DNA of 53,916 nucleotides from contig PS015223.1 of assembly GCA_048213135.1 (NCBI GenBank), forward strand, positions 133,273 to 187,188, written 5' to 3'. Position 1 is the stretch's first letter. The number at the start of each line of letters is the position of its first letter. The position numbers were made by a program, and so were the translations under genes. The stretch is from Reclinomonas americana ATCC 50394 (Eukaryota). This document shows positions 12,300-52,733 of the stretch, piece after piece. Under the pieces are notes generated by a model. The model was given only the letters and a program-made list of their open reading frames with translations, was not told the DNA's origin and ran no database searches.

Positions 12300-13795
12300 T
12301 CACTGAAGTGAGCACTGTGGAAGCGTGATGCCAAACACGCCACGTCGGGTCGACGCTGTCGTCGGGCCTGATGGTGCTGCGGCCGATCGAAAAGGCACGA
12401 GCTGCATGTCCAGACGTCGTGAGTCGCCGTCGACGATTATGTCAGCCTCCTCCACACCACTGTCGTCATCGTCGTTGTCCGCGCTGACCTGCACCGTGGA
12501 TGTGCCGCCGCTGAGATGCGGAATAATCAGGGTGGAGACGGACGACAGGGTGAGGGGCGGCGGCTTGCTGGAGAACTCCAGCAGTTGTGCTGCACCACTG
12601 CCGGCATCATCGTCTGGTGCCTCCGTGGATGCACTGGCGTGCGGAGACAAGAGTCGCGCAAAGTTTGGCGGCAACTCACATGTCGGTGACATTAGCCGTC
12701 GCAAGTAGTACTTGAGGGAGGGGTTCACATGTCCAGGCAGCGCCACCGAGAACCACACCAGCAGACCGCCGTGCACACTGCGTCCCGACGACTCCACCCA
12801 CGGGAATTCGGGCAAGCCAGCAAACTCTATCCAGCGACACTGCGCAGGGTGGGTGACACAGTCGGTGCACTCGACGCGAGCGCGTGAACCGTCCAACAGC
12901 TGGATCCGTACGGAGAAGCCACGGATTGCTTCCTCCACACTCAGTGTGTGCTGCGTCAACAAGTGCGCTCCACATCTCACGAAACGCGGATGTCGACGCA
13001 CCCGCACAATCACTTGCACCTCGTGACTGTCCAACACAATAACGTGCCGATCCGGAACACCCGCTGGCACCGACACCTGCACACCGTCACGATCGACGGC
13101 AGTGGTCCACCGCGAGCCGCGACACTCTGCGCACACTTGCACATTGCGCTCCCCACGACCCTGGCAATCCGGACAGTGTACCACCAAGCGTTGCACTACT
13201 CCCGTTGACAGCGTGCGCAGCAGCACCTTGCGACCGTCGCCCTTTATGGTCGAGTGAGAGTGAGACAAGTGGCACAACGTAACACGAGTCACGCACTCAC
13301 AGACCTTGCACCGACGACAATACTCCAGCTGACCGCCGGTGCCGCCGCACACTGAGCACACTCGCGTCCGCGGCGGGAGGCGAATGCGACGCACCACGCC
13401 CGTGTACACCTCCTCCAGTGACACGCGCAGCACGAGTCGCACGTACTGTGGCGCCTGTTCGATTGCTGGCCTCGCCTCACTCGCACCGACTTGCAGCGGG
13501 TTCTTGCTGGCGAGCCTGTTGTGTGCACCAGAGAACGCTGCAAACAAGTTCTCCAGCACGCCGGGCAGGCCAGTGGTGGCGCCAAACTGCGACTCGGTGC
13601 CGATCTCCGCGAATCCATGCTGCTCGGTCACGTCGTCACCAGCACCACTGATCTGCACAAGCGCAGGAGAGGTGAGTGTGGTGCAGAGTCGACAGGGCGA
13701 CGCAGACAGACGCACCTCCAGTGCCGAAGCGCCATACTTGTCGTACAGTGCACGCTTGCGATCATTGGACAAGACAGCGTATGCTGAAGATGATG

Positions 13796-13837
<42 letters not shown>

Positions 13838-14116
13838 TCAGTAGATGCACGACGACGAGAGACAGACAACTCGCTGGAACTCACGCACCCTCGCGGATCT
13901 TCCGAAACTCATCAGTGGCATTCGGATTCTTGTCGGGATGCAAGCGCAAGGCCAGTGCACGATACGCTCGCTTGAGCTCCTCTGCCGTGGCACTGCGCTC
14001 TGCTCTCGCCACAATGAGGAGGACGAGAACAAGAAAGCAAAGGAGGAGAGAGACACGCAACTAACGCCGAGAATGCGGTACAACTCGGTGGCATCGAATG
14101 CCAAGTGGCGCTGCAT
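12300..14116 (-). CDS. Type I DnaJ/Hsp40 co-chaperone (DNAJA/Ydj1-like)
   Basis: J domain [33 protein letters not shown]...[16 protein letters not shown]; four Zn motifs ([32 protein letters not shown]); C-terminal CaaX-like CSLQ. Confidence 0.9.
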
Positions 14117-28399: not shown

Positions 28400-30131
28400 A
28401 TGCGCGAATGGATCACACTGCAGCTGGGGCAGTGTGGCAACCAAGTCGGCCCGCATGTACTGGACACGCTTCTCCGTTGCGCCACACAAACACAAACACA
28501 CACACATCATCATCAACACTCACACACATGACGCCGACTCTCAGAGGAATGCATGCGACTGCCCGAGGCAGCTCAGGAGGTGTTTGAGCGCGTCTTCTTC
28601 ACACACAGACCAGCACCGGGGTCGCGAGTCTCGGGTCGCACAGAGCGTGGTGTGTACTCTTCCCTCATCTCTCTCTCTCTCTCTCTCATTCTCCTCTCTC
28701 TCATGATCGTCAGTGGCTCGATGTGTGCTGGTCGACATGGAGCCCAAGGCCATACAGAGCGCACTCGACTTTTCCGCACAGAGACAACAACAGCAGCAGC
28801 AGCAGCAGGCAGGCACTGGTGACAGTGGCAGTGCCTCATCACAGTCGCTGCTGTGGCGATACGCGTCAGAAGCAGTCGTGTATGGCGGGCAGGTAAGGGA
28901 GAGAGGAGGGAGAGAGAGGTTGTCTGTGCCTCTCCTTACCCTCAGCCTCGCATCCCTTCTCCTCCAGGGCGGTTCCGGCAACAACTGGGCACTGGGCTTT
29001 GTGAAAAACGGACCACTGTGTCGGGAATCGGTGTTGGATGCGGTGCGACGGCAGGCGGAGCAGTGCGATGCACTGGCGGCGTTGCTGGGCTTGTCGTCGC
29101 TGGCGGGTGGTACGGGCTCTGGTCTCGGAGCGTACGTGTGGAACGAGCTGCGTGACGAGTACCCGGCAACGGCGCTCATCTCGCACGTGGTGTGGCCGCA
29201 CGAGGCCGGCGACGTGATTGTGCAGCACTACAACGCGCTGCTGACACTTGCCGAGCTGCACCGATCGTCGGATGCGATTGCGTTTACGGAGAACGATCAC
29301 CTGCATCAGGTGTGTCGCGGACTCATGGGCATTGCACGGCCGTCGTTTGCCGACATGAATGGAGTGCTGGCGAGGGGTGTGGCGGCCGCACTGTTGCCAT
29401 CGTGTGATGCGTCGCTCGACAGTCCATCGTGGAGCTCCTCGCTGCCGTGGTGGGACTTTGCCGTCGATCCGGCCACTCGACTCACCGCCGACATGTGTGC
29501 CCATCCGGCGCGCAAACTGCTGCACAACTTTGTCGTACCGCAGGTGGCCAGCGGATCGCGCGCCTTCACCAGCCACACGTGGAGTGGCATTGCGCGGCAG
29601 CTGACACAAATGATGGCGACGGGAACGTGCATCGACGGTCAGATGGACTGGTCGTCGGTGAATGTCGACGAGCGCGGACGCCTCACCACCGATCCAGCAG
29701 CGGCGCTGCAGTCGGCCGCCTGGTGGGTCACCTTGCGCGGCAGCGATGTCAGGTTCGCAGTCAGTGTCTCCTGTTGTGCGCACACGACCTCATCATGTGT
29801 GTGTGTGTGCGGTAGTTCCGTTCGCAAGGAGCACCTGCAGCGCTTCACCGCCGTGCGGGACGTGCTCTCGCCCGGCTTCTTCCAGTTGTCCATTGCTCCC
29901 GGCGTCGATTTCGAAGGACTCGCCGGTGTCGGTGCCGCCACCGGCAACAGCCAGTACGCCCTACGCGGCCTCGATCGCCTGCTCTCCCGTGCCACCGAAA
30001 CCATGCAGAGCGGCGCCTACCTGCACCACTACGAAGCCAAGGGTGTCGACGCAGATCACATCCGCGAATCACTGGTGGAGATGGAACAGGTCGCCCAGTG
30101 CTATCGCGATCTCTCCGTGAAACCACCATGA
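28400..30131 (+). CDS. TUBD1: Delta-tubulin
   Basis: TLQLGQCGNQVG, ARCVLVDMEPK, GSGNNWALG, SLAGGTGSGLG, VWPHEAGDVIVQHYNALLTLAELHRSSDA...END.LH, AYLHHY. The VWP..GxVIVQxYN segment is delta-type. Four introns. Confidence 0.9.
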
Positions 30132-33679: not shown

Positions 33680-36600
33680 TCACAGAATCGGATGCATATC
33701 TACAAACTCCTCAGCAACCGGAGCGACAGGCTCTGGCAGAGGCGACGGTGGCGCCCGCAACAGCGATGAACGCCCACTCGTCGAACTGGCCGACGAAGAT
33801 CGCCGACGACTGGCCAGTCGGAGCGACAACGGAGGTGAAATGGGGTTTCGCCTGCTGTGCACGCGATCCGCCTCCACCGGTATCAGCAGGTCTCCCGGTG
33901 AGAGCACAGTGGCGCTGGTGGTGCTGCCAGAAGCCGCCGAACGAGGCGATCCTTGGTTGTCGTCATCGTCGTCGTCATCGTCCATGAGTCCAGGAACCGC
34001 GACGCTGAAGTTGGACCCGGTCGACTGACGACAGCTCTCTCCGTCAGTGATAAGGACACTCACACACACATCGCTGAACGCCGCTGGCGTGACGCAACTC
34101 GGACGTGGAACTGCGGGTCGGCGTCGCCATGCCGGTGAGAGCGCTCTGTTGCAACTGGCGACGCCAGTGTGGGGTCCTCCGACAGCTCCACGTAGTCCAT
34201 GTGACAAGCCGCGGCAGAGTGCAGAGAAGGGTCGTTGGCAGTCGGTTCTCTGAGCTGCACATTGTTGTTTCCCAGGGCCAAGTCGTGCACAGGAGTGTTT
34301 CGAATACGCGACGGATATTTGCCGCACAGTCGCTGACAGCACGTTGTCGACATGAGAGCTGCCGGTGATACATGCACGCATGCATGAGATATCAATCGAC
34401 ACAGCGACTGGAGATCACACAACAATGACTCACCGCGAAACACTCGACCAATCCATCGTGCCGCTTGCAGCACGTAGCGCAACAACGACGGCACCAACAA
34501 CACAAAGCACACGGCTCCCAGCAAGATCAGCGACGCAATGGTCTTGAAGCGGTCAGATGCTTGAGAGGCCATTAGCGTGGCAATGGCAACAAGCGCGCAG
34601 AGCGACATTGCCTGCAAACCGGTGTCAGCACAGGAGATTGCAACAGCTGCTCAGGAGACCACTGCAAAGGACAAAAAAACCTCGAGAATATTTTGCGGAT
34701 TGTGCAGATAGGGTCTCACAACCAACTGCACCGCCAGGAAGAACAGGCACACTGTCCACAGAGCCAGAGGGATGATGTTGACCTCGTTCATGGCAGCCAT
34801 GGGGAACATGACAGAGACGAGGATCAGACGGCGACTGAGTTGATACGCTGCGCGTCGTGACACGAGTCAGTCACTGACGAGTGCAACCGATCACGCCGCC
34901 ACATACACAAAAGACCTTGGAACCAGCAATACCGAGGTTGGAACTGCTCGTACAGTGCGCCGAAACGGCGGAGGATCTGCACAGAGCTCTGCTGTGAACA
35001 CACCACCACAAAAAGACGAGGGCATTCTGCAGGCACAGCCGACTCCACCTGCGGGTTGTGCAGCTTCTTGCTGCGCCGGAGCACCAGCAGCCACACAAGC
35101 AGCAAGACAGGCGACACAAGAGCGAGGAGCACGAGAATGATGTAGAGGGGGAGCATCCGCAGCCATCTGCGTGCGAATGAGCAAGAGAATGAGAACACAG
35201 TGATGCACACTCATGCGCTCACTCGAGAAGCACACACTCACATGCCCTCAAAGCACACGATGCTCGGCGAGAACAGAGCCACATGCGAATCGCCTACGCG
35301 TGAGCACGCGAAGAATGTGACGCCCGCCTCCACGATGCCTTCGTATGCGCCGATGCCGAGGACGATAGTAGACTTCACGTAGCAGTCAACACCTGCCGAG
35401 TGCCGTATCGCGTCGCGCACACGACGCCAAAAGCGCGAACACCAGCGACCGCAGCAGCGACAGCATCGCTTCCGACCTCGCTGGCCCGTCGCAGCGCTCA
35501 CATCGATATCGGCTGCGGTGATATCCACGACCGCCATATCCTCCGCTGGCAACAGGCGCACCAAGAGGCGGTGAACGAAGAACGAAGCCCACAGCAATCC
35601 AAGGTAGACAATCGGCGATATGACGCGCCCGGTGAGGTCGCCGAGTCCACTCAGGAACAGAGGGCAACCGCTGTCGAAGAACTGGGGAACCGAGAAGCTG
35701 ACGAGTTGACTGAGCGCCACAAGGCCAGAGTTCGGGTATAGCAGCAGTGCGCCGGTTTGAATGCTGAAGAACAGAGTCTCCACAGAGTCTGCGAAAGAGA
35801 GACAAAGAGAGATATTCAGCAAAACACAAAGCTGCAAAGCATACGCGTTGCTCCCACAAACCTTCGCCTTCACTTTGCGCAAAGATGTGGGTGACCACCG
35901 CGACAAACCACATCTTGAGAATGACAATCAACATGGCCGCTTTCGAGGTTTCGGTGCACTCGATGCAATCGCCTTGCCAGTGCGAGAATCCAGCCTGTTT
36001 GTTGCACAAAAATGAGTTCCTTCACAGCCACTCTCCGAGCGGAACATCTGCTCACCGAACATCCGCCACACAGTGGCGACGCAGAGTCTCGGTCAAGATC
36101 CGGGTTGCAGAAGTCAGTGCTCGGCGACAGCTCTCCCTGCTGGCCCTTTCGATCACAATAGTCGAACGGACACAGGTAGACTTGTAAGAGGCCACCGGTG
36201 GACGCGCTCACCCTCGCACCGTCGGCGAGTGCGTTGGAGAACTCAAAGTCGGACGTGACGGGGAACGTCCAGTAGCCCGGCAGCAGTGCAATATCGGAGC
36301 CTCCCTTGCACTGCGCGTTTAATGAACACGGCAAGCACTGGCTGCCGCTACGCGTCGCGTCGAGTGAATAGTAGCCGACAGGGCATGGAAAGCAACCGGC
36401 GCCGGCGAGTAGCGACATGCCCGGCGGGCACGCAGTAACGGTGAGCTGCAGCGCCGGTGTGGCGGCCGACGTGGTGGCTCCGAAAGAGCCTCGACCTGCC
36501 GCCGCCACGCTTACGTTGAACGCCCCAAGGACAGCCTCTGTGCGCAGTGATCGCCCATCTCCCTCAGCTGTGTCGACGACTTGCAACTGAAACGCCGCCA

Positions 36601-39600
36601 CTCCGGCAACAGTGCCAAGCACTTGCTCTCTGGTCTGCGCGCAGGCACACTTTGAGGAGGAGGTCGCCATGGAAAGCAAAATGCAGCGCAACGAAGAAAA
36701 CACACGCACCCCAGCACTGCAGCCTGGGCAGCTCACGGAGAAAAAGGTGCCGTCGAGAGTCGGCATCGGCTGGCCGAAAACATCAATGGCGCGAACCTCC
36801 ACAGTACGTGGCGACAGTGAGGAGGGAAACGTCACTGCGAGCGGGTCGACCGTGACATTTGCGGTGAAAAGACCTGCAAGCGAGTTGTCAGCTGCTACTG
36901 CTGCAGTGGTATGCACATCGGTTGCGACGCAACTGCTGGCCAGGTCGGCAGTGGAGCCTGTCGATGTGGAATCTGCATTATCCTCGAACTCGAGATGCCG
37001 ATCGCGCAACCACTCCGCCAAGCCACCCGCAGCCTCCACGTCAGCATACAGTGCCTGCAAGCGTGTCGGCTTTCCGGTCTGAACCGCAACAAACACCGCG
37101 CCTCCGACACCAGCTCCCTCGATGTTGGTACCATTGACGAGACCCGCGGGAAGCAAGGCATGGTTCTTCGCAAAGGTACAGGTCGTCAAGAAGATGCCGA
37201 GTGGAAGTTGTGAGAGACTGCTGTCGGTGAGTACGACATGCAGCGCACCGCCGCGGCCATTTGCTGTGTTGCTGGCAAACGAGCACCCGTTCACCACTGT
37301 GGAAGTACTGTCCAAGAGTAACAGCGCTCCGCCGTCGCCGTCATGCGCTGCGTTACTGTCAAACGTACATCCGCCAACCTCGAGATCCGCCGCACCGGCC
37401 AGAGTCGCGAGAGCACCACCAGAGAGGTGTGCAACATTCCGCGCAAAGTCAGAATCGACCACCACAACAGACGGTGATTCGTTGATGGCCACAGCGCCAC
37501 CAGAGTCCGCCTCATTGTCATGCACCTCGCATCTGTCGACGCGCGCAATAGAATTTTGCCGGATCGACAGCGCTCCTCCGGTACCCGTGGTGACATGGTT
37601 GCTGGACAGAGCGGTTTGTGCCAGCTGGAGGACAGCACTGCCGGAGACCAGCACTGCGCCACCCTCCGACACTGCCTCTCCGTCAACCATCGAACCACCA
37701 GAGTGGGACAGCTGGCCGAGACCTCCAATGTTGACGTGGCCTCCGCCAGTGCCAGCCGAATTGCCCGCGAAATGTGTTGCCACCGTTGTGATATTGGCCA
37801 GCACCGAGATGTGCAATCCTCCACCCGCGAGAACCGCGTGATTGTCAGTGAGGCGACAGGATTGCATGGTGACGACAGCTGCCCCTTCAGCATACACCGC
37901 GCCGCCGTCAGCACGCGTCGAGTTGTTGCCAGCCAGCAGCACCTGCTGCAGGTCATGGCTGCTACCTTCGCTGACGAACATGCCACTCCCAAAAGCCGCA
38001 CGGTTGCCTACCAGACTACACGAATTCCACGAAGACAGTGCACTGCCGTTGGCAAACATGCCGCCGCCAAATCGCACCGCCGCATTGTCAGACACGGTCA
38101 CTGTCTGTGAAAAGTAAGCCTGGCCAGTGCCAACCACGTACACAGCACCACCGTTGGTGGTTGCCCGATTACCGCTGAGTGTCGACGAAACGGCCAGCGA
38201 CAGGCGCGCGCCGCTGGCAACAATCGCCACCCCACCGCCATTCTGAGCAACATTGGCGGAGATGACAGTCCGTGTGATGCTTGATGAAGCAAGGGCAGTC
38301 GAGACGACAAGTCCACCGCCGCTGCCAGTGCGGCCAACTACGTTACTGTCGATGACCAGGTGATCCAGCAGTGTGCTGTCGCCAGTAACAGCCACACCAC
38401 CTCCAGCCACCTCGGCGACGTTGAAACTGACGGCGCCCCGCAACAGCAGCGAACCTGTGCCCAACACGACACCACCGCCGACAGCAGTCACACCAAGCGC
38501 CGAGTTGTCAACAACAGAACAGTCCATCACTGAGCTGAAACTCTGTACAACCACGGCTCCACCGCCGCACGCATCACCGCCCTCACTTGCCGACGACCAC
38601 GAAGCCGTGTTCAAGCGAAACTCGCTGTTGGCAACGGCTACGCTACCGGAGGCCAACAATGCCCCGCCACCACATGCGTCACCAGACTTGTGACCGTTGC
38701 CAGCACCAGCGTCAATCGCGCGATTGCCAACAAACTCACAATCGGTAACAGTGGCGGGGGAGTTCAGCACGAGGAGAGCACCACCACCATTCAGCCGGCT
38801 GCCTCGCCCATCAAGTGAGTTGGAAGCACCTCCAGAGCCGTCGAGTCGCGATTCGTTGTCGTCAAATGATGTGCGAGTGACACTCATCGCGGTCTGTTGA
38901 TGATGATGATGATGATGATGCACACAGGGTGATGAGAGCGAGGAAGACAGGCGAATTGATCACTTGTTGTCAAACGCGTACCATTTGACTCGAGGCCACC
39001 AGCAGCGCAGCACCTCCACCATTGAAGCCGCTTACTGAAGACCCATTCTCGCTTGCGGTGCCACCTGCACCGTTGCGTGTGGACTGGTTCGATCGCATCG
39101 CCACTCCGTTGATCAACTGAACACAAACGCAGTCACATAACACAACCTGAACAGATGACCCACATTGTCGCATGCATACTCTCTCACCAGACGAGACTGT
39201 GTCGATGCAGACGACGACTGGCTGTACGCCAAGACAGCGCCACCACCGCAATTCAACGACGTACTGATACCAGAGCTTCCATTTCCATCGCCACCACTCC
39301 CTGTAAAGATAAACCAAGGGAGAGGTCAACTGCAAGACTGAAAGAAGGTCGGATTGCGTTCAATCTCCTTCTTCCACTCACCATTCATCCACGCCGCGTT
39401 GTTCGAGAGCGTAGATGCCTCGATCTGCAACAAATGTGTGAGGCCAGGCCACACAATGAACCTGAGTGGGACGGCCACACGACGTGCGCACCTGGACAGT
39501 GCCCGCGGTCAACAATAGCAGCAGCGCTCCACCACCATTTCCGTATCCACTGGCCTCCCCTCGTTGTCGATTGCTCGAGCCACCACGTCCGTTGGCGACC

Positions 39601-47084: not shown

Positions 47085-49928
47085 ATGCGCCGCCGATTCC
47101 TGGTGTTTATTGCGCTGACGGCTGCACTCTTGTTGTGCGCACACTCCGTCTCCGCGCAGACCATTGGTACGTTCTCTCTCTCTCTTTTTCTTGCCCACAC
47201 CTCCCTTCCCATCCCCCTCTCGCATGCACACACACCGTCATTACGTCATGTGTGCATGCGTGTTCCATTTTGCTGCATTGATTGCCCATTCTTGTCGTCC
47301 GGCGTGAAGAGAAGCTCACGCTCCGGAGGCGGACAGATATTCTGCGCCTCTTCACTGATGCCCCTCTGCTGTGCCCCGTGCAGGTTCTGGCGTCACGCTG
47401 ACCACCGCCATCAACCGCATCAATAGCTTCTCCACGGCCATTGCCAACACCATTACCAATCGCTTCGCCTTTAGCGGCGGCGATACCGCAGGCGACACCT
47501 TGATCGTCGACGGTGGCAGTGACATGTACGACAGGTGACGTCCGCCTCTTGCCCCTCCCACATATCCGCATCGTCGTCGTCGCCGTCGTCGTCGTCACTC
47601 GCTGACTCTCTTGCATTCACAGTGGTAACACTCTCAATGCCGGCTCGCTGGTGTGCCCCTACACTGGCGGCTCCGTTTCAAGCGCGATCACCGGTGTGCA
47701 GTACGCCACGCTCAAGTACTCCGCCGGCCTCTTTGTGTGGGCAGCGCGGGCCGTCAGCGTCAGCAGCTTCTCCACCACGGGTGGCAATGGAGCCGACGGT
47801 GACGGCGTGCAGCGCACGAACCGCTTCACTCTATCGGTCAACACCGACAGCGGTAACTCCTCCTCGTGGACCGTGTTTGTTGCGCTCTCCTTCTTTGTCG
47901 TGTGCCGTGCGTGCTTGTGGGCTCTACTCACTCATCTGTGCGCAGACCAAGAACATTTGCAACAGTGGCGATCCGAGCATCAATCATGTTGCGCGTGTCT
48001 GTCATGCCGCTCCTCTCGTTCACCGTGTCTCACCAGTTTTTTTCTTGTTGTGTCTCGCAGATCTGGATGGTTCCGCAATCGCAGGCGACATCCATCAACC
48101 AGGTCATTGGAAGCACAACAGATTCGGACTTGGACGCGCTGCAGAGTGCATCTGGTACGTTCTTGGATCTGCTTGTATCCACGTTTCGGACTCGCACTCA
48201 CTCGCTCGCTCGCTCGAAAACAGCGGTGACCGAGTTGTACTACGTCCTCTTTGCTGGCACCGGTTCCTTGTGTTACTCGTCGGCCGACTTTACGTATACG
48301 GCACAAAGTTTCCTCTCTGCCGTCGTCGGCAACACGCAACCTGCACCGTCGCCTTCGACCGACACCACCGCACTCAACACGCTGCTCTCCAACCTCAACT
48401 CTTCGGCGTCATCACTCCGCAGCGTGATCCCGTNNNNNNNNNNNNNNNNNNNNTGGCGGAGATCGCAAAGTCACTTTGAGTCGCTCTCCCAGCGCTGTCG
48501 GCACCAAGGTTGCCCGTAATGTACACCGAGCTGACGCCACTCAGCTGCACCAACAGGTGAGTCGGGTGATTTCTCTCTTTGCCTCGACAGTGGACGCAAC
48601 TTGCGCGGCCCAGACAAAGAAACCTTGCTGCTTCAGAGTAAAGTACGCTCCACTCGCACCAAAGCCATAGGAGCGGCCCGAAAGGATTGTATTGTCCGAG
48701 TAAGAAATTGTTTGAGCCAAGTTTGTGTTCAGAAAGTTGCCACTGTGTGTGTCGCCGTGAAGGTGAGTTACCACAATTGAGTCTGGTACCACCACGCTCA
48801 CTCACCCATCGTACACGTCGCTGCCACCGTCGACAATGTTGTTGCCCGATGTGCCGTCGCTGAAATCGAAACGAGNNNNNNNNNNNNNNNNNNNNCGGAC
48901 TCGTCAGGCAATTTGGCCGCCTGGTCCGTGTACGTTGCGTAACAACCCCTTCTCTGTGTCCTTTTATACGTGCGCTCACCGTCGACATCACCGCAGAGCA
49001 AGAGCGTGTGCGGCTCAGGCGATCCCAGTTTGTACCACGTGCGCCTCTTGTCGTCCTTCGTCTCCGTGGTGCTCCACCATCTCGTGTATTTACAGTACGC
49101 TTCTTCTTTGTCATGCGCAGTTGTGGATCCTTCCGCAGTCGCAGTCGTCTCAAGTGACACACACGATCTCCTCCGACACGAATGACGACACTGACACGCT
49201 CAGCAATATGGACAGTTGCGTTGCGCTGGATACTCGGAAGACGCAGATGACAGACTTCTAACCGATTACACAACGCTGCTGTTGTGCAGATGTGACTCGC
49301 ATGAACTATTTCATGTTTTCAACTTCGAGCACGGTGTGCCTGTCGACGTCGCAGCTGCAGACAATTGCCACTGCGTACGCCGCAGTGGCCGGCAGCAGCA
49401 GCGTACCCTCTAACAATGGTGGTGGTTCCTCGACAACGACGACGACGACCACCACCGGCGGCAAGGCGAATATCGGTCTGATTGTTGGTGCGGCAGTCGG
49501 AGGAGCTGGCGGTCTGGTTGTCCTCATCATGTTGCGTTGGGTGGTGGAGAACGGTCATATACGTGGCCCGACAGCCGGCGCCATCTCACACTTTGTACCC
49601 GCCACGCAGTATCATTGTCTGCTGCATGCGAAACGGCTGCCCCGACTGCTCGTGGATGTGCGCCTGCTGCCGCAGTTGTTCGTGCAATTGTTGCACTCGC
49701 ATGGGATTCGCATGCCGCCGCTGCTGTCGACGCGCATGCCGCAACCCGTGCCCGAAGCCTCCGCCGGCGGTTGTGATTCCGCCAATCTTCCCCGACATGA
49801 GCGGCTGTTCTGAAATCTACAGTCCGCCGCGTGACATCGAAATGGGTGTTCTCGGTCGCCAGCCACCGCCGGGCTCGCCTCAACAGGGCAGTCCGCAGCG
49901 ATTCCTGCAAGGTCTCTTTCTCTCTCTC

Positions 49929-49960
<32 letters not shown>

Positions 49961-51264
49961 GAGTCATGGCTTGTCGATCAGAGTATCTCACGTTACCATG
50001 TTCTCTGTCTGCTCGCACAGTCGCCGCGGGCAGTTCACCAGTGCGAGTGCACGTACCGCCGCAGTTGCCAGTGATGCTCGTGGAGAGTTCAGACAGGACC
50101 GTTCATTGCATTGTGTGCACGGCTGTTGGGCCTGGTGAGGGCGGCGTTCCCATGTATCGCCTGCCGTGTACGCACGGTGTGCACGGTGGTACGTGCCTTC
50201 GCGATCACCTGCTGGCACACTGTAATGTGGGCAGTGGACTGGCACCGTGCACGGCCAGCGGTTGCACCGCCAGTTGCGTGCTTCTGTTGTCAGCATGCTG
50301 CTGATGACTGACTCGGCGCACTCACTGCTCACTGCCACCACTGCAGAAATTCCGATGAACGTCGCCGAGCATGCATCGAGTCAGAAGAACTGTCCGTTCC
50401 CCAAAGAGTTTGTGCGCTACCGAGAGCACGTCATCCGCACCGAGCAGGAACAGTGCATGCGCGATCTCAACGCGCACTTGTGCCCGAATCCGTCGGTATG
50501 TACACCTAAGCTACCCTACTCTCTTCCTTGTTGTTCTTTGCCAAACACTCATGATGCATCTTGTTCTCCCCACCTGCGCAGTGTGGTGGATGGCTGCAGG
50601 TCGAGCGGGACCGCGCTCCACGCCGAATCATCTGTGGAGGTTGCAACTGCAGGTGTGTGCTTGCATGTGTTGCGGCGTTGTGTTTTGTGGCTGCGCGTAA
50701 CTGTGGTGGTGCCGCAGTGTGTGCCCGCGATGCTGGCAACGGTGGCGAAGTGGCGCCGGATCGGCTCAGACCTGCGGCAGTGTTGAGTGCGGCCGGTTGT
50801 GGGAGGAGGAGGCCAATGAGATCTTGGCCAGGTGCCCGGTGAAGACGATTGGCTCGCACAACGACATTCCCAGCATGCGTGCTTGTCCCGCATGCCAGCA
50901 CCTCATGGGTGAGAGGGGAGACGCACATGTACAGGCAGTGTGAGGGGTCGCTTCTTTTGATGACTGATTGCATGTGCTGTAGAACACCGCGAGGCTTGCA
51001 ATCACGTCAAGTGCCCGAATACTGCGGTTCGTGTGCCGACACACCGTGGCTGCTCCCACTTTGCTCGCGCCTCACTCTATGCTTGTTTGTTCAGTGCCAA
51101 CACGAGTACTGCTTCCGGTGCCTTCGTCCGACAAAAGTCATGTTTCGTTAATGACCGGCTCCTCTTCCTCTGACTTGTCGTGCATGCACTCACATTTTCT
51201 CCTACAACCACACAGGTGCACGTCGTGCCCGGGAGTTGCTCCGCGACAAGTGCTGCACTCGTGA
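47085..51264 (+). CDS. Predicted single-pass receptor: two tandem extracellular domains, TM, Cys-rich juxtamembrane segment and cytoplasmic RBR (RING1-IBR-RING2) E3 ligase
   Basis: Signal MRRRFLVFIALTAALLLCAHSVSA; two DGGSD(M/V)YD..GN / GAD / GDPS..H domains; TM IGLIVGAAVGGAGGLVVLI|IIIV; RING1 CIVC..CTHGVH..C..C..C; IBR CPNPS|C..CGGCNC|SVCPRC; RING2 CPAC..EHREACNHVKC..CQHEYCFRC. Segment 48454-48875 is on the opposite strand. Confidence 0.8.
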
Positions 51265-51667: not shown

Positions 51668-52733
51668 ATGGATCGAGCAACAGACGCGGTCGACAGAGGA
51701 GGCGGTGGCGAGGCCACAGACAAGGACGACGACGACCGACAGTCAGTGGACACAAGCGACGCAGATGCAGTGTACCACGACACCACTGCCGCCGGAGACA
51801 GCAGTGGCACAGCACCATCAACTCCTCCTCTTCTTCCCTCTCAATCAGCAGCGGATATGCGACAGCTGCACTCCCACATTCACCAATCGCATCTTTCATC
51901 ACTCGCCGACTCTCCGTGTGTGTCATCGGCGGCCTCGTCGGCGGGTTCGTCGTCGGGAGTGGATGGTGGGCGGTCTCCAGTGCACGGCGCAAGCATGGCG
52001 ACGCATCCTCATCACTATCATCATCATCAACACCACCATCACCACCCCCCTCGTCATCACGTGCTGCAGCTGCACCCGACGTCACCTCCGTCTGCGCAGC
52101 GCGGTTCTGTGGGCGACATGTCGGCAGGTGCGTCGTGGGTGGCCTCGGGCGAGGCCGCGGGTGAGCCGGCAGTGTCGACCGCGGAGGACTTGGCGCGTCT
52201 GACTCTGCGGAGAGTTGTCATCACTCCCGGCAGCGTCACCATGTCGCCGGGCCAGCGAGGCGGGTTGCCGCGACCGGGTGCGTTGCAGGAGGCACGCAGG
52301 AGAGCCACCNNNNNNNNNNNNNNNNNNNNNNNNNNNNNNNNNNNNNACGCTGGCCAATAGCCCCGAAATGGTCATGTCGGTGAGTTAGTTTGTGTTGTCT
52401 CTCGCAAAAAGTGATGGGGTTTCTCCGATGTGACGATTGATCGCCGCGCAGGGCATGAGCCGATCTCGCTCCATGCCACACATTGACGATGTGCCGAGCT
52501 CGGAGCGCGTCAGCAGCACGGCGTCGGCCAGTGGAGGCAGTGGCATGTCGCCAGGTGCCGCGGCTGCGGGTTTGTCCCCCGACGCGTTGCGCAGTTTGCC
52601 ACGAGTGTCGTCGAGAGAGAGCGTCACTCGCTGGCTGGACGAGCAGGAGCGGTCAAGTGTAACGATGTTTCGCCAGCTCAGTGGCTCCTCACCGCCGCCC
52701 GAAGCCATGGACGCGCCTGCACCACCCATGTAG
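51668..52733 (+). CDS. Low-complexity Ser/His/Pro-rich hypothetical protein interrupted by a gap
   Basis: MDRATDAVDR... is open to the gap at 52310-52346; after an intron (about 52380-52451) it reads GMSRSRSMPHIDD...APPM, TAG. Confidence 0.5.

Follow-up and report, generated by a model that had tools for sequence, protein, structure and literature searches.

A gene predicted to code for an 877-amino acid (aa) type I membrane protein is present in a 53,916-nucleotide (nt) stretch of Reclinomonas americana ATCC 50394 DNA (assembly GCA_048213135.1, contig PS015223.1, positions 133,273 to 187,188 of the forward strand), which is referred to here as the window. The predicted protein has an ectodomain of two tandem modules, a single transmembrane (TM) segment, and a RING1-IBR-RING2 (RBR) ubiquitin ligase domain, and would couple binding at the cell surface to ubiquitination. 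We put the probability of this reading, one gene with this organization, at roughly 0.68, and regard the product as probably a genuine type I "receptor RBR ligase."

Gene structure and the inverted block

The window is eukaryotic, with short GT-AG introns and with delta-tubulin and DnaJ-type genes on the same DNA. The receptor-RBR gene is on the + strand, from an ATG at 47085 to a TGA at 51262-51264; these landmarks, the start of the RING1 exon at 50021, and the codon at 50997-50999 for the cysteine of an A-C-N-H motif are all where a first-pass annotation of the sequence had placed them. That annotation also described a phase-consistent splice path. Phase is indeed kept across all 18 introns, each of which is GT-AG and 56 to 217 nt long, but the + strand path is broken as assembled, with a 422-nt block (48454-48875) inverted relative to its neighbours.

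The inverted block is bounded exactly by two runs of 20 Ns (48434-48453 and 48876-48895), and its reverse complement is the missing middle of ectodomain 2, consisting of three exon pieces with their own GT-AG introns. When the block is flipped and the Ns are deleted, the frame continues through both junctions without the loss of a base, the first mended junction reads ...IP-S-RFDF, like the family consensus, and the profile score of ectodomain repeat 2 (described below) rises from 171.8 to 189.7 bits. Because of the N-run boundaries, the in-phase closure, and the restored consensus, the simplest reading is that the block is probably a scaffold contig placed in the wrong orientation, not a biological inversion. 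Such a mis-oriented piece would defeat automatic gene prediction at the locus.

With the block flipped and the Ns removed, the coding sequence is 2,634 nt (877 codons plus a stop, with 0 internal stops) and is distributed over 19 true exons, or 21 pieces as assembled. The GC content in the proposed frame is 0.52 at codon position 1, 0.56 at position 2, and 0.70 at position 3. A branch-like CT[CG]A[CT] motif is present within the last 50 nt of 15 of the 18 introns, and seven introns start with GTTGCG, examples being the donors at 47879, 47988, 48934, 49215, 49531, and 50273 (+) and at 48595-48600 (-). GTTGCG occurs 79 times in the whole window, compared with an expectation of 57.5 +/- 6.7, and none of 100 shuffles reaches this number; it may be a lineage-specific 5' splice-site consensus. 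The final splice also matters for the RBR part, as without it the frame stops nine residues past a C-F-R-C motif and the last two candidate ligands of the catalytic RING2 (Rcat) module are missing. A tblastn search found no second copy of the spliced model in the window.

The ectodomain module and its bacterial relatives

The two ectodomains are homologous, as the first-pass annotation had it, with 35% identity between repeats 1 and 2 (E 3e-43). An 85-aa query from exon 3 has 18 matches at E<=1e-3 in an exhaustive phmmer search of 1.84 billion cluster representatives, 12 of which are large bacterial-type secreted or surface proteins containing 26 full copies of a ~215-aa domain, with one to three copies in each. 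The partner Pfam domains of these 12 proteins are SdrD_B, CarboxypepD_reg, PKD, HYR, CUB, TSP_3, P_proprotein, Peptidase_S8, dockerin, Planc_extracel, and the type IX secretion system (T9SS) tail Por_Secre_tail, and the spliced repeats have phmmer domain scores of 36.8 to 108 bits against them. The other six first matches (P0008, P0010, P0011, P0012, P0013, and P0017) are repeat proteins of the SBBP or Flg_new kind that match in several short stretches and were treated as spurious; they have no domain match to the spliced repeats and were left out of the profile.

The ectodomain profile, built from the 26 bacterial copies and 218 positions long, matches the spliced model twice from end to end, at profile positions 6-214 (162.2 bits) and 4-212 (189.7 bits). 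The family motifs DGG.DMYD.GN, YFT.K.PGLF, G.GADG.G, and PS.NH are kept in both eukaryotic repeats. The ectodomain splice junctions, including those of the 42-nt micro-exons and of the inverted block, are thus independently validated, because the spliced product is collinear with intronless bacterial domains. No Pfam or NCBIfam model covers the ~215-aa domain, and no Pfam family was matched by the single exons of the ectodomain.

A wider profile search returned 135 longer proteins at E<=1e-5, with source names that include Pirellulales, Lacipirellulaceae, Aureispira, Reichenbachiella, Marivirga, Lewinella, Latescibacteria, Verrucomicrobiales, and Fidelibacterota; several of these proteins carry no Pfam domain at all. 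Within the family (database proteins P0001-P0132) the domain is usually present in two or three copies, in Planctomycetes- or Bacteroidota-named proteins or in proteins with T9SS tails. Tandem copies are found in the T9SS-tailed proteins of Aureispira, Reichenbachiella, and Marivirga and in the SdrD_B or P-domain proteins of Pirellulales and other Planctomycetes, as they are here. However, the bacterial proteins are intronless, are secreted or anchored to the wall or outer membrane, and carry the domain alongside Ig-like, PKD, HYR, TSP3, or peptidase domains, in all of which the eukaryotic gene differs. Ten Pfam-less relatives of ~800-930 aa, similar to the model in length, were considered as possible counterparts and rejected, nine being Asn-rich repeat proteins and one TSP3-like, none with an RBR. 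In the Asn-rich proteins (P0122-P0126, P0128, and P0130-P0132) the domain is seemingly circularly permuted or present as one and a half copies, and the DGG.DMYD motif sits after the sandwich core.

In a maximum-likelihood tree of the 26 bacterial and two eukaryotic copies, which is unrooted and small in sampling and in which the eukaryotic rows are compositionally deviant, the eukaryotic copies are sisters (99/95) and lie beside the copies of P0016, a T9SS/HYR protein (94/93). This placement is compatible with a bacterial origin and a later internal duplication. The ectodomain module was probably acquired from bacteria and then duplicated within the gene, since it otherwise occurs in bacterial secreted or surface proteins.

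An AlphaFold2 model of one bacterial copy (P0005, residues 44-264, from a 14-row alignment) has a pLDDT of 90.3 and a pTM of 0.89 and consists of about 12 strands in a sandwich, with one helix at the N terminus and another at the C terminus. Foldseek found no PDB structure matching this model at E<=1e-3 (TM-scores <=0.32), and a profile search of PDB sequences with the ectodomain alignment gave no matches at E<=10. With VIA-align, the best match of the bacterial copy is 7fe3_A, with a root mean square deviation of 3.7 over 170 residues and a Z of 9.4 that is barely above the background of the method, for which the best Z in the absence of true relatives is typically 7-8; six of 48,161 chains have Z>=8. 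The top group (Z 6.5-9.4) consists of the N-terminal beta-supersandwich domains of GH65, GH94, GH15, GH92, and PL4/PL26 enzymes, YidC P1, and mutarotases, and a sugar-binding-like fold for the modelled domain is a lead, not a finding. The adhesin-type and peptidase partner domains in bacteria suggest that the domain is a binding module.

Membrane topology and the putative RBR part

The model has exactly two hydrophobic stretches by Kyte-Doolittle hydropathy, from which the signal peptide and the TM segment are assigned: residues 1-25, which are signal-peptide-like and end in VSA, and one TM segment of ~26 residues, split by a GTTGCG-donor intron across which phase is kept. The first-pass annotation had predicted the same signal peptide and single TM, and the Thr/Gly linker and Cys-rich segment that it placed around the membrane are present too. 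A Gly/Ser/Thr8 stalk precedes the TM, which is followed by 16 Cys within 44 residues, several Arg, and then a Pro-rich linker. There is no hydrophobic stretch C-terminal to the RBR.

RING1 is at aa 648-700, the IBR at 748-800, and RING2/Rcat at 832-863, with the predicted catalytic Cys at 845; these positions in the 877-aa numbering were derived by arithmetic from the pattern and splice results. Profile support within the RBR comes from RING2/Rcat, and RING1 and the IBR are assigned by ligand spacing. The Rcat profile originates from a scan of viral contigs with a short catalytic-loop motif, which gave eight loci, four of them in long giant-virus open reading frames (ORFs) that Pfam calls IBR, IBR_1, or IBR_2. 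A four-segment profile from these viral sequences scores 20.7 bits against the Rcat of the model, compared with 13.2 bits for the best of 5,000 composition-preserving shuffles, and pairwise alignments put the match at the same residues in 4/4 viral ORFs. The Rcat alignment is assembled from four exons and therefore also supports the last three splice junctions. Read from its sequence, the protein is an RBR by its Rcat and its module order. The first-pass annotation had called the RING1-IBR-RING2 complete and its catalytic Cys intact; the Cys, by its C-N-H motif and the Rcat profile match, agrees with this, as do the ligand spacing and module order, whereas RING1 and the IBR are off canon and without profile support.

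Two of the giant-virus ORFs, from metagenome-assembled genomes, are of interest in themselves. Both (L009:949-3921 and L013:5148-8063, each on the - strand) code for proteins of ~980 aa that end in an IBR/Rcat with a GGCNHM catalytic loop, have further Cys-rich modules before it, and look like viral RBR-like ligases. Pfam IBR has no match in one bacterial genome and 14 control genomes, so these provide no RBR reference.

Along with the narrow margin of the fold match and the hydropathy basis of the topology, a number of results weigh against a receptor ligase. The ligand patterns were written post hoc, so that the shuffle test is lenient, and the absence of all three patterns in order (as at aa 648-863) from 20,000 shuffles is to be read with this in mind; the loose RING1 and IBR patterns turn up in 555 and 536 of the 20,000, respectively, and the RING2 pattern, in which a Cys in a C-(N/x)-H context precedes C-x(1-5)-C-x(3-4)-C-x2-C, is rare (2/20,000). 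RING1 is off the C3HC4-type cross-brace canon, with His at ligand 5 and a three-residue spacing. The IBR/BRcat consensus is C-x4-C-x14-30-C-x1-4-C-x4-C-x2-C-x4-H-x4-C, and the Cys spacing of the IBR fits it, but the canonical His is replaced by Arg. For Rcat, the last two ligands are guesses. No RING or IBR family was matched in Pfam at E<=10 by the RING1 and IBR exons, searched as single exons with the IBR split over three, and 10 single exons together gave only DZR at E 0.013 plus noise. PDB sequences gave nothing better than E 0.31 for the RING1 exon and the IBR/Rcat exon; the search with the RING1 exon returned RNF165 at E 1.2, and the protein-atlas neighbours of this exon are RING-finger clusters, a lead only. 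A word-indexed search of longer proteins with the RING1 exon gave 81 candidates, none at E<=1e-3, and scans of metagenomes and viruses with the RING1 and IBR/Rcat exons confirmed no relative. Finally, a second instance of the architecture is lacking: PF01485 is found in none of the ectodomain relatives among the matches listed (120 of 135), and a TM followed by an RBR is seen in the eukaryotic protein but in none of these 120.

No Ns occur from 48896 to 51264, so one unbroken stretch of DNA carries ectodomain 2 from its second half on, the TM, the Cys-rich segment, and the RBR. That the receptor part and the RBR form one fused product is quite likely, because they are joined by an ordinary in-phase 109-nt intron on gap-free DNA. 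The alternative is that there are two adjacent or nested units, a receptor-like protein and a small cytosolic RBR, and that the fusion is an artefact of prediction. Reading through the donor at 49911 leaves the frame open to 50135, and a receptor-only product could end at the stop at 50136-50138 or at some other 3' end; in-frame ATGs at 49966 and 50074, both in the RING1 frame, could start an RBR-only product. The lack of the fused architecture in any other protein found, whether in the database and metagenome scans with the RBR exons or among the ectodomain matches listed, also speaks for two units. However, the two parts lie just 109 nt apart, and these 109 nt preserve the phase and have every feature of the other 17 introns (GT..CAG, CTCAC at -34, T-rich). 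The units would need to overlap on the same strand. Flanking genes are spaced by several hundred bases, as between the stop at 51264 and the next ATG near 51669. We therefore consider two units unlikely.

A decaying or non-functional chimera is less probable still. The inversion at 48454-48875 would then be real, or the RBR degenerate, and the product would be a surface adhesin with a Cys-rich tail; the block is indeed inverted in the assembly, and RING1 and the IBR do deviate from canon and go unrecognised by exon-level Pfam and PDB searches. Against this, the ends of the block coincide with the two 20-N gaps, and flipping it restores the consensus with in-phase junctions and zero missing bases. 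Moreover, there is no stop in 877 codons over 21 pieces, both repeats retain the family motifs, and the RBR still has its catalytic C-N-H motif and matches the Rcat profile. The features of the preferred single gene are listed in Table 1.

Table 1. Exons and other features of the predicted receptor-RBR gene (positions in the window)
Feature	Position	Strand	Evidence
Exon 1: ATG and signal peptide (aa 1-24, ending in ...VSA); donor GTACGT, phase 1	47085..47166	+	Hydrophobic stretch aa 1-25, Kyte-Doolittle maximum 2.19
Exon 2: start of repeat 1, N-terminal helix, RF.F..G...DGGSDMYD motif	47384..47534	+	Profile alignment, aa 32-245
Exon 3: core of repeat 1, source of the 85-aa query	47623..47878	+	18 database matches at E<=1e-3
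Exon 4: 42-nt micro-exon, GDPS.NH motif, repeat 1	47946..47987	+	Collinear with intronless bacterial domain
Exon 5: strands of repeat 1 after the PS.NH motif	48061..48154	+	Profile match
Exon 6: last part of repeat 1, a short Pro/Ser linker and the N-terminal helix of repeat 2; meets N gap 48434-48453	48224..48433	+	Profile match
Inverted block, piece 1: exon 6 continued, RFDFSDG...DGGSDVYD, donor GTGAGT	48806..48875	-	Junction ...VIP-S-RFDF fits family consensus
Inverted block, piece 2: core exon of repeat 2, donor GTTGCG on the minus strand	48601..48742	-	Splice signals
Inverted block, piece 3: repeat 2, GN.GAD motif; runs across gap 48876-48895 into 48896	48454..48544	-	In-phase junction
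Remainder of the same repeat 2 exon, past the second N gap	48896..48933	+	Phase, profile
42-nt micro-exon, repeat 2, GDPS..H motif; position equals that of exon 4 in repeat 1	48997..49038	+	Repeat comparison, profile
Repeat 2 exon, donor GTTGCG	49121..49214	+	Splice signals, profile
Last part of repeat 2, Gly/Ser/Thr8 stalk, start of TM helix	49290..49530	+	Hydropathy, Kyte-Doolittle maximum 2.7
Rest of TM, then the Cys-rich stretch next to the membrane (16 Cys in 44 aa) and the Pro-rich linker; donor GTCTCT, phase 1	49610..49911	+	Hydropathy, sequence
Intron joining membrane part to RBR: 109 nt, GT..CAG, CTCAC at -34, 41% T	49912..50020	+	Comparison with the other introns of the gene
RING1 exon, C-x2-C-x16-C-x-H-x2-H-x3-C ... 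C-x4-C	50021..50272	+	Ligand pattern; protein-atlas lead to RING clusters, 0.86-0.89; no Pfam or PDB match
RING1-IBR helix linker and first IBR Cys pair	50347..50495	+	Ligand pattern
Middle exon of IBR (BRcat)	50582..50652	+	Ligand pattern
End of IBR, tether, first C-x2-C of RING2/Rcat	50718..50908	+	Ligand pattern, Rcat profile
Rcat exon with predicted catalytic Cys (Cys845 of the 877-aa model) in the C-N-H motif, codon 50997-50999	50983..51026	+	Rcat profile
Rcat micro-exon, 23 nt	51095..51117	+	Rcat profile
Last exon: final candidate Zn ligands (Cys, His), TGA	51216..51264	+	Unspliced frame stops early

The other genes of the window include a nearly single-exon delta-tubulin gene (28707-30131, +). 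Among 5.8 billion clusters no relative of its ORF exceeds ~34% identity at full coverage, and the best ones (~34% identity at 99% coverage) come from rotifers, green algae, oomycetes, and MMETSP protists. The sequences imply a host from a centriole-bearing and poorly sampled eukaryotic lineage, the latter because the delta-tubulin relatives are distant and the RING1 exon has no near relative. A 1,029-aa open frame at 35870-38959 (-) matches Beta_helix (E 7e-16) and Chlamydia PMP repeats, and is another bacterial-looking type of surface protein. A 526-aa open frame at 12300-13880 (-) matches DnaJ_C and, weakly, DnaJ CXXCXGXG. The next gene downstream of the receptor-RBR gene starts at ~51669 (+), ~400 nt past its stop, and has an acidic, Ser-rich N terminus without a Pfam match.

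Comparison with known ligases and proposed function

RNF144, RNF19, and RNF217 have their TM after the RBR and are not known to have a signal peptide or a large ectodomain. A table in PMC9285105 gives human RNF144A/B, RNF19A/B (Dorfin), and RNF217 one or two TM segments. These proteins share with the protein described here the RING1-IBR-RING2 order, a catalytic Cys in RING2, and anchoring in the membrane, but here there are ~470 residues outside the membrane, the TM comes before the RBR, and the protein ends 14 residues past the C-x2-C of Rcat. By its predicted layout it is not of the RNF144/RNF19/RNF217 type, because its TM lies on the opposite side of the RBR; the difference drawn in the first-pass annotation is borne out, with the sole TM preceding the RBR and nothing hydrophobic after it.

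RNF43/ZNRF3 and the PA-TM-RING proteins (Goliath/GRAIL/RNF13/RNF167) ubiquitinate neighbouring membrane proteins and drive their endocytosis. They also have a signal peptide, a binding ectodomain, a single TM, and a cytosolic E3 domain; their ectodomain has the PA fold, and their single RING-H2 serves as an E2 scaffold, whereas here a tandem, unrelated bacterial-type module is combined with a predicted thioester-forming RBR. The contrast with RNF43/ZNRF3 that had been proposed at the outset is upheld, as no PA family is found in the ectodomain exons and there are three predicted cytosolic Zn modules, including Rcat. Since neither the ectodomain nor the catalytic domain fits, the predicted protein is not of the PA-TM-RING/RNF43 type either.

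In the RBR relay, RING1 recruits E2~Ub, and ubiquitin is passed to the Rcat Cys and then to the substrate (PMC3940038). The catalytic C-N-H motif followed by C-x4-C-x2-C is like that of Ariadne/HHARI; however, the protein has no Ariadne, UBA-like, or acidic region, its RING1 has His at ligand 5, and its IBR is without the canonical His.

If the single-gene reading is correct, the protein would have, outside the cell, a cleaved signal peptide, two tandem ~215-aa helix/beta-sandwich/helix modules, and a Thr-rich, probably O-glycosylated stalk, and, continuing inward, a TM helix, a juxtamembrane Cys cluster that is a candidate site of palmitoylation or metal binding, a Pro-rich linker, and an RBR with an intact catalytic Cys. 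By analogy with receptor-type RING ligases, it may be placed in the plasma or endosomal membrane. The ligand of the two sandwich modules would be a polymer outside the cell, perhaps a glycan on the surface of prey or bacteria. The cytosolic RBR, by analogy with RBR enzymes, would accept ubiquitin from an E2 on Cys845 and transfer it either to the protein itself or to membrane proteins nearby, so that binding at the surface would lead to endocytosis or sorting. That the ectodomain binds a ligand, that the RBR is active as a ligase, and that the two are coupled is inferred by analogy, and ligand-responsiveness is pure inference. A more elaborate scenario, which we regard as speculative and rather doubtful, is that a bacterial surface-binding module was captured by horizontal gene transfer, duplicated, and wired through a TM to an RBR, giving a true "receptor ubiquitin ligase" in which polymer binding clusters the receptor, relieves the auto-inhibition of the RBR, and so puts ubiquitin signalling under direct control from the cell exterior without kinases or adaptors.

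The RBR ligases known so far are cytosolic or tail-anchored and are regulated by auto-inhibition, and the known receptor-type E3s have simple RING-H2 domains. A full-text literature search found no description of a signal peptide-ectodomain-TM-RBR protein, although database entries with such an architecture may exist. The available text of a survey of ubiquitin-system architectures (PMC4327156) makes no mention of transmembrane segments or signal peptides. The module itself belongs to a widespread bacterial domain family, without a Pfam or NCBIfam model or a solved structure, that is now seen in a eukaryotic gene; its presence inside an intron-rich gene points to inter-domain transfer followed by exon-shuffling-like fusion. 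If the prediction is true, a type I receptor with a thioester-forming RBR would link extracellular events to ubiquitination in a new way, and would provide a natural test bed for the release of RBR auto-inhibition across a membrane.

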